Below are positions 2,920 through 15,278 of a DNA stretch of 62,415 nt, one piece after another. Position numbers and translations under genes: made by a program. This DNA is from Candidatus Thorarchaeota archaeon (GTDB taxonomy: Archaea; Asgardarchaeota; Thorarchaeia; Thorarchaeales; Thorarchaeaceae), in assembly GCA_016839445.1 (NCBI GenBank), contig JAEOUG010000100.1, positions 1 through 62,415 on the forward strand, in the 5' to 3' direction. The number at the start of each line of letters is the position of its first letter. The first letter of the stretch is position 1. The notes under the pieces are model-generated. The model was given only the letters and a program-made list of their open reading frames with translations, did no database searches and had not been told where the DNA came from.

Positions 2920-3076
2920 GGCAAACGGCTCCTAACCTTTGGTTCGTCATATTCCATCTACAGAAAGGTGTTTCGTAGATGGATTTGTGCGTTCGTCTGC
3001 AGGCTTGCCCGAGTACAGCCGTTCGTCTATGCAAACCTGTATAAGCCGAGGCAATGGGTCTCCTGTTGGTGACCTC

Positions 3077-3448
3077 ATGTCCGACGTTGGAACGGGGCAA
3101 TTGTCGAGGCAGGAACTCAGAGACCTTCGCCGTCTACGTGCTGTGAGGGCGGCTTTGGACGAACTCAAACGAAAGGGCGTTACAGCTGACATAGCAATCT
3201 GCCCTAACTGCAAGAGTCCAAGGGTCATCGATCTGACTTCCTACCACGACTTGGGGTTCATTGGCTCGTTCCAGCCTGCCTACTACTGTCTTGACTGCGG
3301 CTGGTACGGCCGGACACTGACAATCATGAGCAACAGACCTCAAGATGATGCAATCCTTGAGGACATGAGAGGGGCCTTCCAGCCTCTTCTGGACCCTGAA
3401 GAGGATCCGTACGCAGGTTCCGCCGAGTCCTCAGATGACGAGTTCTAG
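3077..3448 (+). CDS. Zn-ribbon protein with acidic C-terminus
   Basis: CPNC...CLDC; start moved to ATG 3077 (GGTGA SD). Confidence 0.7.
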   Translation: MSDVGTGQLSRQELRDLRRLRAVRAALDELKRKGVTADIAICPNCKSPRVIDLTSYHDLGFIGSFQPAYYCLDCGWYGRTLTIMSNRPQDDAILEDMRGAFQPLLDPEEDPYAGSAESSDDEF

Positions 3449-10291: not shown

Positions 10292-11065
10292 TCAGTCATC
10301 CCAGTCGAAGTCGTCTACGTCATCCCAGGAGTATGGCCAACCCTTCATGCCGCGCTTCATGGACTTGAGTGACTTGAGTCCCCTAAGCCCTTTCATGGCC
10401 TCGGTAACTGATCTCGTCACTATGGGGCCTATATCGAGGAAGTTGTCAAGTCCGACAATGCCTCCCTTTCCGACAATCAGGTTCTTCCCATCCCTGTTGG
10501 TGATGGCTACGCCTGACTTGCTAACGGAAACCATGTTGTCCTCGCCCAGAACGAAGACGTTCTTGCCGTGTGTGAAGACGAGACCTCTGTCTTCTCCCAT
10601 CACGAGCACAACCGGTTTGCCATCGGAGTCCTTGCCGAGGAAGATGGAGGACTTCTCCTTCTTGTCCAGCTTCGTCTTCTTGGTGTCCCCATTGAACTGC
10701 TCCACTATGGCGGTCTCGATGGTGCTTACAAGCGCTTCTTCGCTGGCGAATCCTTGACTCTGGAGATCACCAGAAGTCGCCTCCCTGGAGACATTCTCAA
10801 GGGAGTTCGGTCCGATGTAGAACTGGACTCCATCGAGGGTTCCAACAACAGATTCTCCCATGGCGCCAACATCGGTCTCTGCGATAGCATCAACTGCGAA
10901 ACTCGCTGGTCCTATGAAGGCCGCTCCAACTCGAACACCATCGTCGAGGATGTATACCCACAGGCAGCCTGCCTCCATCCTGACATAGGCCTTCTCATGT
11001 GAGAGGATGTCATGATCCTCTGTGGTCGTCATCACGTTCTTGTCTGGTATCAGTCGCTTCATCAT
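10292..11065 (-). CDS. Hypothetical protein with beta-rich repeats and acidic Trp C-terminus
   Basis: 257 aa ORF with GGAG SD, 10 nt after the wHTH gene; ends WDDVDDFDWDD. Confidence 0.7.
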   Translation of the reverse strand: MMKRLIPDKNVMTTTEDHDILSHEKAYVRMEAGCLWVYILDDGVRVGAAFIGPASFAVDAIAETDVGAMGESVVGTLDGVQFYIGPNSLENVSREATSGDLQSQGFASEEALVSTIETAIVEQFNGDTKKTKLDKKEKSSIFLGKDSDGKPVVLVMGEDRGLVFTHGKNVFVLGEDNMVSVSKSGVAITNRDGKNLIVGKGGIVGLDNFLDIGPIVTRSVTEAMKGLRGLKSLKSMKRGMKGWPYSWDDVDDFDWDD

Positions 11066-11075
11066 TCGTATCTCC

Positions 11076-11963
11076 TTAGTCCTTCCAATCTAGATCATCC
11101 AGGTCCTCGCCTTCTCGAGGCTGGGACTCATCGCCCTCGGTCTCGTAGTGGTATGAATAGCTGTTACCTTCTTGCTCTTCGGAGGCTTCATCCTCTTCTG
11201 GTTCGAATTCGACGCCAACCTCGGCCTCGTCGTCATCGACATCCGTCTCGTTGGCACTGCCGTTGCCGCTCTTTCGTTGCTGGCGTTCAACTCTGCTGGT
11301 CAGCCACTGTGCAAGGCGATAGGCCAGGCGTCCTTCTACAGTGACGTAGTAGGTGCCCCTGACCTCTCCCTTGACCACATATCCTGCTTCCACGAGAGGA
11401 TCGAGGTGATGCGTGAGGGAGCTTCCTGTCTTGCCAGTGTGCTGTTCAATCTCGTTGAACTTCTTGCCACCCGTCTTGAGGAGGTCGATTATCCTCAGAC
11501 GCTCCTCGCTTCCCAAGGGGCTCACAATCTTGGCAACGCGTTCAGGAGGAATCTCCTCGAACTTCTTTGCGCGGGACTTGGTCTTGGCTCCTCTTCGTGC
11601 GCTCCTGGCAATGCGGAATCCTGGAATTCGGGTTCCGTCGACGTGCCTGAGGCTCATCTCGATCTGCTCTCCTAAGCCGTCCATCATGTCTTCAAGAGAG
11701 TCAGTCACCTTGGAGAGGTCAATGTCAATCTCCGGCACACGGACGGGTGGCGGAGGACGAGGCCTTGTGATTCGCCTGGCCTTCCTCAGCTGTTCCCTCT
11801 GGTGCCGAAGCTCATCTCTCTCATCCCGGATGTCCCTCTCTTCTCTACGTCTTTCGAGTCTCTCTTTCTCTCGACGGACATCCTCAACTTCTCGGGCCAG
11901 CTCCTCTTTGAGCCGGCGCACATCATCGAGTTCCTTCCGAATCTTGTCAATGTCGTCGCTCAT
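11076..11963 (-). CDS. ArsR-like winged-helix regulator with N-terminal coiled coil and acidic tail
   Basis: LGSEERLRIIDLL...GSSLTHHLDPLVEAGYV...GTYYVTVEG. Confidence 0.8.
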   Translation of the reverse strand: MSDDIDKIRKELDDVRRLKEELAREVEDVRREKERLERRREERDIRDERDELRHQREQLRKARRITRPRPPPPVRVPEIDIDLSKVTDSLEDMMDGLGEQIEMSLRHVDGTRIPGFRIARSARRGAKTKSRAKKFEEIPPERVAKIVSPLGSEERLRIIDLLKTGGKKFNEIEQHTGKTGSSLTHHLDPLVEAGYVVKGEVRGTYYVTVEGRLAYRLAQWLTSRVERQQRKSGNGSANETDVDDDEAEVGVEFEPEEDEASEEQEGNSYSYHYETEGDESQPREGEDLDDLDWKD

Positions 11964-11980
11964 CGTCGTGTCACTTAATT

Positions 11981-12057
11981 CTGTGATATTACAGTTACTG
12001 TATAAACTTACATTTAAACTCTGCGGTCAGAGTACAGTTTTGGAACATGTGTTCCAA
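11981..12057. promoter_or_regulatory. Divergent promoter region with palindromic operator candidates
   Basis: TACAGT-T-ACTGTA (11990-12002) abutting TATAAA 12001-12006; TTGGAACA-TG-TGTTCCAA (12040-12057). Confidence 0.55.
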
Positions 12058-12199
12058 GGAACCAGTGCTTTGCTGACACCAGTGTGGTATTCTTCAAAAA
12101 CCTGTCCTGAAGGCCTAGAAGTCATTTCTACGGGATTTGTTTATTAGTGAAATAGCGGCCGAAGGTTCACTCTTACTTGATGAGGGTGAAATATCAGAA

Positions 12200-12403
12200 A
12201 TGGCAAAGAAGAAGGCTCCGGCCAAACCAAAGTACACCTACTTCGTAAAGAAGGCAATCCAGGACTTCGCCAAGGACAATGGCATGATGGTGGGCAGCGA
12301 TGCCTACGATGCATTCAACGTCGTCATGCATGAGGCCCTCTCCGCCGCAGCTGGTCGCTGCAAGGAGAACAAGCGAAAGACCCTGAAGGCATACGATTTC
12401 TAG
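12200..12403 (+). CDS. Histone-fold protein with Lys-rich N-terminal extension
   Basis: MAKKKAPAKPK...VKKAIQDFAK-DNGMMVGSDA...AAAGRCKENKRKTLKAYDF with the L2/alpha3 RKTxxxxD histone motif; GGTGA SD. Confidence 0.8.
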   Translation: MAKKKAPAKPKYTYFVKKAIQDFAKDNGMMVGSDAYDAFNVVMHEALSAAAGRCKENKRKTLKAYDF

Positions 12404-12440
12404 AAGCCTACTAGTATAAGGAGGGTGGGTGGCTTCCCGG

Positions 12441-13118
12441 CTACCCAGCCTCACTCTCTAATTCTGCCACCGAGCTCTTGGCTTTGCGTGAAGAAGGCAA
12501 CAGCAGAGCTATGAGGAAGAGCCCAAGCCCTATGTACAGTCCCGAGAACGCTGCTATGAATACTATATGGCGTGTCCAATATGGGATTGCCAGATCAAAC
12601 AGGTAGAAGAACGCAGAAACGGCAAACAACAGGAGGGCTCCCATAAGGAGGCCAATCCGTCTATCATTACGTTTCTCGTCCTCGACAGCAGCTCTCTTTT
12701 TCCCTGGCTCGAAACGGATCAGACCTGCGACAGTGAAGGGAACGCTTACCAACATGTAGAGCCCTAGAATCACCATCATTCCGAAGTGAGTCCAATGTAT
12801 GAACTCGCTCTGGTCATCAGTAGCGACCGTGCGGAAGATCTGGATGCCGTCAGGCCACCCAATGACGATTCTGTAGTAGAACTGGTTGGTGTCATAGTCT
12901 CGGTGTTGCTGAATCGTAAACGGAAAGGCCGTTGGAGGCATTACTCTGAGTTCCTGTTCTGGCCCGATGGGGATTTCTATGATGGGTATACTGGTAGCAG
13001 TGAACGCAGTCATGCCCGCCATTAGCACTCCAACAAAGAGAGTCTCGTATGCTCTCTTCGTCCTACTTCCACCCAATCTGGACCATGCACCAAGGCAAGC
13101 CAGAACAACAAGCATCAT
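12441..13118 (-). CDS. Hypothetical membrane protein
   Basis: 4-5 hydrophobic segments; start uncertain. Confidence 0.6.
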   Translation of the reverse strand: MMLVVLACLGAWSRLGGSRTKRAYETLFVGVLMAGMTAFTATSIPIIEIPIGPEQELRVMPPTAFPFTIQQHRDYDTNQFYYRIVIGWPDGIQIFRTVATDDQSEFIHWTHFGMMVILGLYMLVSVPFTVAGLIRFEPGKKRAAVEDEKRNDRRIGLLMGALLLFAVSAFFYLFDLAIPYWTRHIVFIAAFSGLYIGLGLFLIALLLPSSRKAKSSVAELESEAG

Positions 13119-13284: not shown

Positions 13285-14484
13285 CTATCTCGCTTCCTGA
13301 ATCTTCTTGACTTCAGCAATGATCTCAGGCAGTACCTGGAAGATGTCACCAACGATGCCGAAGTCTGCAATCTCAAAGATGGGCGCCTCGGGGTCCTTGT
13401 TGACAGCCACGATGATGTCAGCACTGCTCATGCCGGCTATATGTTGAATTGCGCCTGATATCCCGAGAGCGAAGTAGAGCTTTGGACAGACAGTCCTGCC
13501 TGACTGGCCGACCTGCTGGCTCGGAGGGAGCCATCCAAGATCCACGATAGGTCGTGAACCGCCTACTGCAGCATCAAGAAGGTCCGCAAGTTGCTTCGGT
13601 AGCTCGAGATTGGCAGGGTCCTTGATGCCACGTCCGCTGCAGACAATCACATCAGCTTCCTCTACGCTCTTCATGCCCTCGACGCCTTCCTTCACCTTCT
13701 CCAGTACCCTGGTTCGCACTTGAACCGGACTGATGTTCATCTCGACCTTCTCTATCTTGCCAGTTCGTGATTTGTCTGGCTCACCAGGCTTGAAGACGTT
13801 GGGTCGAACGGTTGACATCTGGGGTCTCTTGTACGGCGAGAGAATCTCGGCCATGATGTTCCCGCCAAAGGCGGGCCTGGTCTGAACCAGCTGTCCTTCA
13901 CTGTCTATCTCCAGGCCTGTGCAGTCTGCTGTAAGACCTAGACCCATTCGTGCCGCAACTCGAGGCGCGAGGTCTCTTCCGTTGGTCGTGGCTCCGTAAA
14001 GCACGACGTTTGGCTTTCGTTGGGCTATCAATGAGGAGACCGCTATAGTGAATGCGTCGGTGGTGTAGTCTTGGAAGATCTTGTCGTCAACCACAAGCAC
14101 ATGATCTGCGCCCTGATGGACCAAGGACTCAGCAAGACCCTCAATCTCGTGTCCGATGAGCACAGCAGTGAGGGGCTCTTCCAGCTTATCCGCTAGTTCA
14201 CGGCCCTTGGAGGTCAGTTCGAAGGCAACGCTCCTGAGCCTCCCATCATTCGTTTCAGCAACTATCCATACTCCCTTGTGGTCCGCAATGGCACCCTTGT
14301 CAACTGCTTTGCGCTCGATAGTGATGGCGTCCACGGGACAGACTTCTTCGCAGGAGCCGCAGAGGACACACTTGTCGAGGTCGAACTTGACCTTGTCTCC
14401 GTCCCTCTCGATTGCACCGAAACTGCAGACCTTTGGACAGAGCATGCATCCGTTGCAGGTTTCTCTGTCGAAGATTAGACCCAT
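13285..14484 (-). CDS. etfA: Electron transfer flavoprotein alpha subunit with N-terminal 2x[4Fe-4S] ferredoxin
   Basis: CNGCMLCPKVC and CVLCGSCEEVCP; GLTADCT; QQVGQSG; GISGAIQH. Confidence 0.95.
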   Translation of the reverse strand: MGLIFDRETCNGCMLCPKVCSFGAIERDGDKVKFDLDKCVLCGSCEEVCPVDAITIERKAVDKGAIADHKGVWIVAETNDGRLRSVAFELTSKGRELADKLEEPLTAVLIGHEIEGLAESLVHQGADHVLVVDDKIFQDYTTDAFTIAVSSLIAQRKPNVVLYGATTNGRDLAPRVAARMGLGLTADCTGLEIDSEGQLVQTRPAFGGNIMAEILSPYKRPQMSTVRPNVFKPGEPDKSRTGKIEKVEMNISPVQVRTRVLEKVKEGVEGMKSVEEADVIVCSGRGIKDPANLELPKQLADLLDAAVGGSRPIVDLGWLPPSQQVGQSGRTVCPKLYFALGISGAIQHIAGMSSADIIVAVNKDPEAPIFEIADFGIVGDIFQVLPEIIAEVKKIQEAR

Positions 14485-14486
14485 CT

Positions 14487-15278
14487 TTAGATCGCCCCCT
14501 TCTGCGCCAAGAATTCCACAAGTTGCTTGGCTGCCGCCTTCGGGTCATCCGCCTCTATCTTGATACCGCCCTTCTTCTTCTCAGGCGCGAAGACTTTCCT
14601 CACCTGAGTTGGCGAACCCTTCAGTCCTAGGTCGTCAAGATTAGAGCCGAGTGTCTCAGCATTGACCTCCTCGTACGGCTTGCTCTTGGATTTCATCACG
14701 CTCATGATGCTGGGTAGACGGGGTTCATTGAGTCCCTTTGTCGCGGTGAGGAGTACTGGCAGTTTGACCCTCACAACCTCGTATCCCTCATCTGTCTCAC
14801 GGTGGCAAGTTGCATGCTTGGCATCTTCGCTCAGTTCGATCTTGCGAACGTAGCATATCTGAGGAATACCCAGGAGTTCTGCCAGTTCCGGACCGACCTG
14901 AGCAGTGTCTCCGTCAATGGCTTGCTTGCCGCAGATGATGATGTCAAACTCCATCTTCTTGATTTGCCCGGAGAGCGTGAGTGCAGTGGCCCAAGTATCA
15001 GCCCCTGCAAAGGCTATGTCAGTCATGTGGACCGCCTTGTCGCCTCCCATGGCAAGGGCCTTCAAGAGCGCCTCTCTTGCCTGAGGTGGGCCCATTGTGA
15101 TGATGGTGACTTCTCCCTCATGCTTCTCCTTCAGCTGAACGGCGGCCTCCACTGCAAACTCATCGAAGGGATTGAGAATGCTCTGGACGCCCTCTCTGAT
15201 CAACGTGCCAGTCTCTTTGTTGATTTTGACTTCAGCGACTTCAGGAACCTGTTTTACGGGTACAATGATCTTGACCAA
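14487..15278 (-). CDS. etfB: Electron transfer flavoprotein beta subunit
   Basis: VKQVP, NPFDEFAVE, FAGADTWAT, GKQAIDGDTAQVGP. Confidence 0.95.
   Translation of the reverse strand: MVKIIVPVKQVPEVAEVKINKETGTLIREGVQSILNPFDEFAVEAAVQLKEKHEGEVTIITMGPPQAREALLKALAMGGDKAVHMTDIAFAGADTWATALTLSGQIKKMEFDIIICGKQAIDGDTAQVGPELAELLGIPQICYVRKIELSEDAKHATCHRETDEGYEVVRVKLPVLLTATKGLNEPRLPSIMSVMKSKSKPYEEVNAETLGSNLDDLGLKGSPTQVRKVFAPEKKKGGIKIEADDPKAAAKQLVEFLAQKGAI

Follow-up and report, generated by a model that had tools for sequence, protein, structure and literature searches.

Gene and translation start

The window analysed here comprises positions 1 to 62,415 of contig JAEOUG010000100.1 of a Candidatus Thorarchaeota archaeon (assembly GCA_016839445.1; genome G000 below). 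The subject of the present study is a short gene in this window that encodes a protein of 67 residues, in which a lysine-rich N-terminal tail precedes a small histone fold. The frame runs from an ATG to a TAG, begins with MAKKKAPAKPK and ends with RKTLKAYDF directly before the stop codon. An earlier note on this DNA, made from the letters alone, had described the protein in the same terms, and translation of the window bears this out. In a collection of 5.8 billion proteins, 136 of the 140 scored candidates matched at E ≤ 0.001, with best values of 1e-27 or lower; the frame was confirmed as a genuine gene, far beyond chance. The counts over 121 sequences given below refer to the query and 120 homologues among the matches listed. 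The gene lies in a 236-bp AT-richer spacer with a GC content of 0.45, compared with approximately 0.54 in the surroundings. The features of the locus are listed in Table 1.

Table 1. Features of the histone locus in the window (FtF, face-to-face; L1 and L2, loops of the histone fold; ORF, open reading frame).
Feature	Position	Strand	Basis or remark
Tailed alpha3-truncated histone, putative FtF type (coding sequence)	12200..12403	+	Translation, 136 homologues, AlphaFold2 fold
Tail, codons 1-11, Lys/Ala/Pro-rich	12200..12232	+	Predicted disordered; outside every predicted interface
Predicted histone fold	12233..12400	+	alpha1 17-26, L1, alpha2 33-56, L2 R59-K60-T61, alpha3 64-66
Probable false N-terminal extension, 21 codons, TTG start	12137..12199	+	Mechanical and public ORF calls
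Shine-Dalgarno-like motif GAGGGTGA	12182..12189	+	Ends 10 nt before the ATG
Putative promoter, CTACG...TTTATTAG	12128..12147	+	TATA-like box at 12140-12147; function suggested by sequence
ArsR-family winged-helix protein, 295 aa	11076..11963	-	Pfam HTH_5, E 4e-08; divergent from the histone gene
257-aa gene, no Pfam match	10292..11065	-	Protein ends DFDWDD
Membrane-protein ORF, convergent	12441..13118	-	Mechanical ORF list, Pfam scan
EtfA with N-terminal ferredoxin domain, and EtfB	13285..15278	-	Downstream of the histone gene

The mechanical ORF list contains only a longer form of the gene, 12137..12403, with 88 residues counted from a TTG and thus 21 additional residues upstream of the ATG, and the public gene call of the contig (P0002) likewise has 88 residues. 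The earlier note regarded this extension as false. In the present study, 105 of the 121 sequences started with MSK (64) or MAK (41) at the Met closest to the fold; these counts, like the other start-site counts, come from related sequences and are hence no independent trials. Residues before that Met were found in 14 sequences, of which one (P0086) was an artefact of the counting rule and 13 were over-extended gene calls. Automatic gene calls therefore give about 13 of the 121 homologues, including the public call of the window, spurious N-termini that hide the tail. Of the 29 orthologous loci in the whole-genome set, 17 had a stop-to-stop frame of only 67-73 codons, which makes an upstream extension impossible there.

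The nucleotide context was in agreement with these starts. A motif of the GAGG/GGGG type was found 11-18 nt before the MAK/MSK start in 27 of the 29 orthologous sequences with a permissive regular expression. The hexamer TTATTA occurred upstream in 26 of the 29; relatives have it at -94 to -120, and the window has it at -59 (within TTTATTAG). A longer block around this element, CTACGACATAT(A/C)CTTATTA, occurred in 11 of the 29. TTG 12137 directly adjoins the TATA-like box; if this box acts as a promoter, as its position suggests, the TTG would lie outside the transcribed mRNA. A start after the tail, which the earlier note had named as a possible objection, was also looked for, and the frame contains no in-frame start codon between ATG 12200 and the fold. 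These observations support ATG 12200 as the translation start and the TTG 12137 form as an over-extension, as judged from sequence comparison.

Fold and class

We modelled the protein with AlphaFold2 on a 46-sequence alignment. The earlier note had named the lack of a predicted histone fold as grounds for doubt; such a fold was predicted with a mean predicted local distance difference test score (pLDDT) of 88. By DSSP, alpha3 comprised only 3 residues, and the protein ends at residue 67. Residues 1-10 were modelled with low confidence (pLDDT 58). In the model, alpha2 has 24 residues; for a comparison with nucleosomal histones, 46 profile positions (18-63) align to 51 positions of HMfA (10-60), so that HMfA has a surplus of 5 residues somewhere within this span.

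All of the top Foldseek matches in the PDB were histones. HLp ranked first (9qt0/9qt1; template modelling [TM] score 0.86-0.88 on target, root mean square deviation 1.3-1.4 Å), followed by HTkC (9f2c) and the HBb entries (TM 0.81-0.86 on target), and nucleosomal and NF-Y histones came last (TM 0.55 or less). Sequence searches gave a similar order. A phmmer search matched HLp at E 2e-4 and HTkC at E 0.88, while a family profile yielded E-values of 1.8e-17 for HLp, 3.4e-14 for HTkC and 1.4e-08 for HBb, and of approximately 2e-3 to 1e-2 for NF-YB, Asgard HHoB and HMfA. The histone-class profile check proposed in the earlier note thus placed the FtF histones HLp and HTkC best, HBb weaker and nucleosomal histones weakest. 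Model, Foldseek and profile searches agree on the truncated alpha3 that the note had claimed, and together they support membership in the alpha3-truncated histone superfamily.

A nucleosomal identity of the HMf type was considered and rejected: the Pfam histone model PF00808 scored 15.3 bits over residues 42-66, short of its cut-off of 21.4, the nucleosomal family NF043032 did not match the tailed protein, and alpha3 has 3 residues instead of approximately 10. NCBIfam contained no family for the tailed protein or for its tailless paralogue described below.

As described in the available part of PMC11390915, alpha3 histones are defined by an alpha3 of 3-4 residues and an alpha2 that lacks 4-5 residues compared with nucleosomal histones, and FtF histones by a tetramer predicted to have the shape of a torus. 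In the FtF profile of that source, conservation is highest at R48, N52, R54, T56 and D61; a salt bridge links R48 to the carboxyl group of the residue that follows D, and N52 makes a bond with R54 in the opposing dimer. Bacterial dimer histones are described there as lacking R48 and N52 and as exclusive to bacteria. At a uniform offset of +5, the equivalents in the window protein are R53, N57, R59, T61 and D66, and F67 is the C-terminus. A50, R53, N57, R59 and D66 were invariant in the 46-sequence alignment, and V16, K17, D34, K60 and T61 were conserved in at least 90% of its sequences. In 120 of the 121 sequences, R and N were present and D was followed by exactly one residue, the exception being P0106, which has a divergent C-terminus. 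The solved FtF histones are HLp and HTkC, and HBb is of the bacterial dimer type; in profile alignments, HLp shared R and N, HTkC shared R, and HBb had S and D at these positions. In the available part of 10.64898/2025.12.06.692711, the R45A mutation of HTkC is reported to abolish the tetramer and to cause HBb-like behaviour, and the truncated alpha3 is argued to be necessary for the Arg-carboxylate bridge.

A complex model of four copies reached a score of 0.89, compared with 0.19 for the best of 3 controls; in the calibration of the tool, 20 of 30 solved pairs and 1 of 23 single chains attained this mark, under conditions that differ from a model with four copies and a custom alignment. Three runs shared at least 77% of contacts, with a partner pLDDT of at least 88. 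The scored copy had a full handshake interface with one copy and touched a third copy via residues 52-53, 56-57, 59, 63 and 65-67, which correspond to the FtF dimer-dimer region, and no residue before 11 was part of any interface. The oligomer modelling that the earlier note had called for thus predicts a tetramer-type interface at the FtF position. Since R and N are present, HBb lacks them, and a tetramer-type interface is predicted, we assign the protein to the FtF class rather than to the Bd0055/HBb class, the two possibilities that the note had left side by side. The sequence and the models fit the FtF category of alpha3 histones.

Tail composition and charge

The initiator Met is expected to be removed where position 2 is Ala or Ser. 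After this removal, the tail of the window protein (residues 2-11) reads AKKKAPAKPK and contains 5 Lys in 10 residues. Over the 121 sequences, the tails consisted of K (46%), A (27%), P (12%) and S (6%). Three or more K/R were present in 108 of the 121 tails, and D or E in only 9. Tail lengths clustered at approximately 8-12 and 16-21 residues, and within a single genus the tails ranged from MAKPK to a 22-residue K/A/P run. This range indicates that composition is conserved and length drifts, as in low-complexity basic tails. The tail claimed in the earlier note is genuine in this sense: MAK/MSK starts recur across homologues, and the tail is conserved in kind.

The distribution of charge differed between the tailed proteins and their tailless paralogues. 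The mean net charge of the tailed proteins (n=9) was +2.8 for the fold (last 55 residues), +3.3 for the tail and +6.1 in total, whereas the tailless proteins (n=15) carried +6.1 on the fold and 0 on the tail, again +6.1 in total. In the window protein, the fold has +2 and the tail +5 (total +7), compared with approximately +6 for its own tailless paralogue. In the tailless fold, basic residues are more frequent around the alpha1 end and L1. To judge from these sequences, the tail looks like a relocation of positive charge, not an addition. Because the charge would have been relocated to the tail, we propose that the tail dominates, and possibly tunes, the affinity for DNA.

Distribution and paralogues

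The earlier note had suggested an Asgard origin from the letters alone. The nearest relatives were 23 Thorarchaeota/Promethearchaeota loci and 3 from Planctomycetota; the archaeal loci share gene order with the window, and the suggestion stands. Among 400 genomes of the phylum, 115 matched the window protein at E ≤ 1e-5, including 79 of 85 in the family of the window and 27 of 27 in its genus. Outside the family, only 35 of 314 genomes matched, all more weakly (E 1e-6 to 1e-9). The tailed gene is therefore near-universal in its Thorarchaeota family (79/85 genomes).

Genome G000 (2.9 Mb, 190 contigs, 90% complete, 6.5% contaminated) contains three histone-fold genes: the tailed gene, a tailless FtF paralogue on contig C68 (locus L005, 1501..1671; 56 aa from its ATG, 49% identical) and a nucleosomal histone on contig C25 (NF043032, 92 bits). 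G000 thus combines three histone types, of which the tailed form is one. In the genus, two or more matches to the query were found in 23 of the 27 other genomes, and exactly one nucleosomal histone in 23 of 28 genomes, G000 included. Tailed and tailless forms occurred together in the Thorarchaeota metagenome-assembled genomes (MAGs) TM1S.149, TM1S.264, LCG1B.62 and LCG1B.475.

In a tree of the fold only (55 columns, 47 rows), the tailless sequences formed a clade with support of 100/98. The tailed sequences did not group as one clade, and long-branched outgroups nested among them. We therefore claim two lineages, and do not claim monophyly of the tailed lineage. The C68 paralogue shows the same R/N/RKT/D/C-terminus pattern as the window protein, but lacks the tail, carries its charge on the fold, falls in the separate clade and has different neighbours.

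Three FtF histones of Planctomycetota (L029, L030 and L031; the match in question at 3001-3111) were placed inside the tailless clade (97/84, then 100/100), and they bear MAAKKK/MAARRK tails of their own. This hints at a transfer from archaea to bacteria followed by a separate gain of a tail in Planctomycetota; the branches are long and the tree has 55 columns. The nucleosomal histone of the genus (C25, L001 1474..1710, minus strand; L075-L096) has a short basic segment, PRS(R/K)K(E/D)R, in place of a K/A/P tail; the segment is followed by IIPVAP, with which the fold starts. This histone apparently often uses a non-ATG start, V or L preceding PRS in the frames.

Comparison with known histones

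HLp of Leptospira perolatii (PDB 9QT0-2, PMC12701072) is the best match in both sequence and structure, and it belongs to the same length class. Its R, N, RxT and D positions match those of the window protein, and it likewise ends in DF, one residue after D. HLp also has an N-terminal extension before alpha1, the first six residues of which are described in the available part of PMC12701072 as invisible in DNA-bound crystals. However, HLp is bacterial and approximately 30% identical, its N-terminal residues are not Lys-rich, and its L2 has T-T where the window protein has K-T. HTkC of Thermococcus kodakarensis (PDB 9F2C) is, like the window protein, an archaeal alpha3 histone that occurs beside nucleosomal histones, and it shares the tetramer arginine and the RKT loop. 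It differs in having no tail, in an E at the N57 position and in its identity of 29-31%; moreover, the aspartate of RxTxxxxD is reported to be replaced by histidine in HTkC (10.64898/2025.12.06.692711, as far as available). HBb (Bd0055) has the same alpha3-truncated fold and the RKT motif. In contrast to the window protein, it has S and D in place of the tetramer R and N, and it is described as a DNA-bending dimer in a category that, in the text available, is bacterial only.

The tails themselves resemble those of the HLoB and HMpB histones from Asgard archaea, which are Lys-rich and disordered and begin with Ala-Lys-Lys-Lys after Met removal, as in the window protein. The tail peptides are alike (AKKKTPAKK of HLoB.2, AKKKAPAKPK in the window protein; 10.64898/2026.07.02.735847, in the available part). 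However, the HLoB/HMpB tails are described as approximately 16-32 residues long and stand on full-length hypernucleosome-type folds, whereas the tail of the window protein has 10 residues and stands on an FtF-type fold. The available text of the same source describes nucleosomal histones of Loki and Hod that bear Lys-rich tails, together with an acetyltransferase that acts on these tails, cites the HLoB.2 tail peptide AKKKTPAKK in a figure legend as carrying K9me1, and describes alpha3-truncated histones as abundant in a Heimdallarchaeia MAG. It sets "HLoC" histones aside, and one figure legend labels HLoC as face-to-face.

Proposed DNA binding and alternative explanations

DNA wrapping is reported for HLp (PMC12701072) and for HTkC (10.64898/2025.12.06.692711) in the available parts of these sources. 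By phmmer alignment, a window residue corresponds to the native HLp residue + 4. The DNA-contact residues of HLp, as listed in the available part of PMC12701072, map to the window protein as follows: A13/S14/K15 to K17/K18/A19 at the N-terminal end of alpha1, K17 to Q21 and K21 to K25 in alpha1, T27/G29 to V31/S33 in L1, and T56/T57 to K60/T61 in L2. The tail is joined just before the "paired ends of helices" site of alpha1, at the DNA-binding rim.

We consider it probable (roughly 0.7) that the product is a small FtF chromatin protein that forms a closed, DNA-wrapping tetramer, with its tail acting as a tunable electrostatic clamp. By analogy with HLp and HTkC, two histone-fold homodimers would join via the end of alpha2, L2 and the truncated alpha3. 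R53 would extend to the free carboxylate at the C-terminus of the opposing dimer, and N57 and R59 would form a pair. From sequence, fold and predicted interface, the resulting closed tetramer is expected to wrap DNA on its outer rim, with contacts from the N-terminal end of alpha1 (K17, K18), K25, the L1 backbone and L2 (K60, T61). The tail would leave the fold beside the N-terminus of alpha1, next to the path of the DNA, where it may serve as a flexible electrostatic clamp. Acetylation or methylation of the tail lysines may then tune the affinity for DNA.

Several points weigh against this proposal. The high complex score may stem from solved tetramers that the predictor remembers, namely those of HLp and HTkC (approximately 30% identical), and the contacts are known for one scored copy only, so that the closed ring is itself a prediction. 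The Pfam histone model matches only below its threshold. The tailed fold has fewer basic residues at alpha1/L1 than the tailless paralogue; since basic residues have been lost around this site, DNA binding by the tailed fold may be weaker or different. The charge comparison describes a pattern among related, non-independent sequences and carries no statistic. For the protein and its Thorarchaeota orthologues, tetramer and DNA binding are predictions. Lastly, modification of the tail is a matter of inference, for which deacetylase genes and the likeness to Loki tails are permissive evidence. Genome G000 encodes 2 SIR2-family genes (contigs C188 and C131) and 6 PF00850-family deacetylase genes (C20, C53, C6, C72, C61 and C56; one PF00850 match is in two pieces). 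Such genes are common in control genomes, with matches in 10 and 9 of 14. Six PF00850 and two SIR2 genes make a large set for a 2.9-Mb genome.

A possible memory of solved tetramers in the complex score also bears on the possibility that the protein is a homodimer only, which bends DNA as HBb does and forms no tetramer in the cell. The HBb fold is nearly as close to the model as the FtF folds, both in TM score (0.81-0.86 on target) and in its profile E-value of 1.4e-08, and an RKT motif is common to HBb-type histones, Lys included. However, R53 and N57, which are absent in bacterial dimers, are invariant here, the profile E-values of HLp and HTkC are lower than that of HBb by 6-9 orders of magnitude, and a dimer-dimer interface was predicted at the FtF position. 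Furthermore, the relatives of the window protein are archaeal, whereas the available part of PMC11390915 restricts bacterial dimer histones to bacteria. We therefore regard a purely dimeric protein as quite unlikely. A hetero-oligomer is an unlikely arrangement as well: mixed dimers or tetramers with the C68 paralogue would carry tails on some of their subunits only. Both paralogues are present in G000 and in the four MAGs named above, two or more matches are usual in the genus, both proteins keep the R/N/C-terminus interface residues, and their total net charges are equal. Nevertheless, the homotetramer was already modelled with confidence, the genes are located on separate contigs, where their neighbours are unrelated, and the solved FtF histones are homotetramers in the sources available.

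Two further explanations concern the name and the start of the protein. Several homologues, and the deposited HLp chain, bear the NCBI name "DUF1931 domain-containing protein", which would suggest a histone-fold protein that does not bind DNA. We consider this name misleading and the explanation scarcely credible. There was no Pfam DUF1931 match at E ≤ 1; proteins of that kind are described, in the text available, as pseudodimers without DNA-binding residues, whereas the window protein is a single 67-residue fold with a net charge of +7 and conserved K17, K60 and T61; and HLp binds and wraps DNA under the same database name (PMC12701072, in the available part). It is also very improbable that the tail is missing from the protein as made, through a start at TTG 12137, which would prefix an acidic 21-residue extension, or through removal of the tail. 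The frame is open from 12137, the public call P0002 uses that TTG, and the gene call of the closest relative, P0003 (95% identical), likewise includes an upstream extension that is in frame and similar in sequence. Opposed to this are the equivalent Met in 105 of 121 homologues, the 17 loci whose frames leave no room upstream, the Shine-Dalgarno-like motif before the ATG, the position of the TTG beside the conserved TATA-like box, and the lack of an in-frame start between the ATG and the fold. The tailed FtF tetramer described above thus remains our preferred explanation.

Relation to previous work

Archaeal FtF histones "generally lack tails", and bacterial FtF histones commonly have positive tails, according to the available part of PMC11390915. 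HTkC, the sole archaeal FtF histone described as characterised in the texts available, has no tail. What is known in the present case is the FtF-type alpha3 histone itself; what is new is its tailed, charge-relocated variant, which is conserved across a family and paired with a tailless paralogue. We did not find a Lys-tailed FtF histone of Thorarchaeota, its tailless twin or the charge relation between them described in the texts available, and partial prior coverage is possible. The tailless paralogue, the relocation of charge and the conservation across the family had also not been foreseen in the earlier note.

In eukaryotic chromatin, histone tails and the modifications they undergo play a central part, and Asgard tails have been studied on nucleosome-type histones. 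A tailed FtF histone with a tailless twin of equal charge represents a natural experiment on what a tail contributes to a non-nucleosomal histone. We further speculate, as a rather unlikely but consequential extension, that two FtF paralogues of equal charge package DNA, one of them with approximately half of its charge on a reversibly modified tail that is similar to the methylated and acetylated tails on nucleosomal histones of Loki. If this were true, tail-based regulation of chromatin in Asgard archaea would not be bound to the nucleosomal fold; it would also act on a toroidal, non-nucleosomal tetramer, possibly in mixed tailed/tailless assemblies, and would constitute a second platform, independent of the first, on which histone tails serve in signalling close to the origin of eukaryotes.

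Neighbouring genes and other observations

Of 8 tailed loci, 7 contained the ArsR-type gene, the 257-aa gene and an ABC-transporter pair; these genes were absent from all loci of the tailless paralogue (27 loci searched). In the ArsR-type protein, the N-terminus is a highly charged coiled coil and the C-terminus is acidic, with DLDWKD as its last residues; the protein could be a regulator of the histone or a chromatin partner. Similar acidic-aromatic C-termini occur in this protein and in the 257-aa neighbour, both of which are syntenic with the tailed histone. Among the relatives searched, the EtfA/EtfB pair downstream was shared with locus L006 only.

In the metatranscriptome run X17, a single contig covered 11557-11817, which lies inside the ArsR-like neighbour and outside the histone gene. 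An Rfam scan of 11900-12500 returned only a snoRNA match at chance level (E 0.92). A scan for sigma-70 promoters and terminators likewise gave only chance-level matches, and such a scan is irrelevant for an archaeon. The upstream block resembling CTACGACATATCCTTATTA stands approximately 95-120 nt before the start in relatives and 59 nt before it in the window. The longer leader of the relatives shares a G-rich block (...CCTGC...AGGGGGA...), which the window lacks. This longer 5' leader may contain a structured or regulatory element that has been lost in the window.

FtF-like genes with MAKK... tails were also present in other Asgard families, in 7 of the 14 regions examined (L061-L067, from genomes G188, G174, G046, G184, G208, G206 and G164). 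Their N-termini include MAKKAAKAEP, MAKKKGGAKAEA and MAKKKVVKKAKKTVE, with MKKGPRPPPV in L066, and these histones carry an insertion in L1/alpha2 (...SSGVLDGD...). The matches of the representative search also included longer alpha3 relatives, such as P0124 (260 aa), P0126 (198 aa) and P0134 (207 aa). The group to which they belong (P0124, P0126, P0132-P0139, P0147, P0150, P0154 and P0155) shows two architectures: one or two alpha3 folds behind an unassigned N-terminal region of 130-200 residues, and tandem doublets of the alpha3 fold with a length of 119-150 residues.

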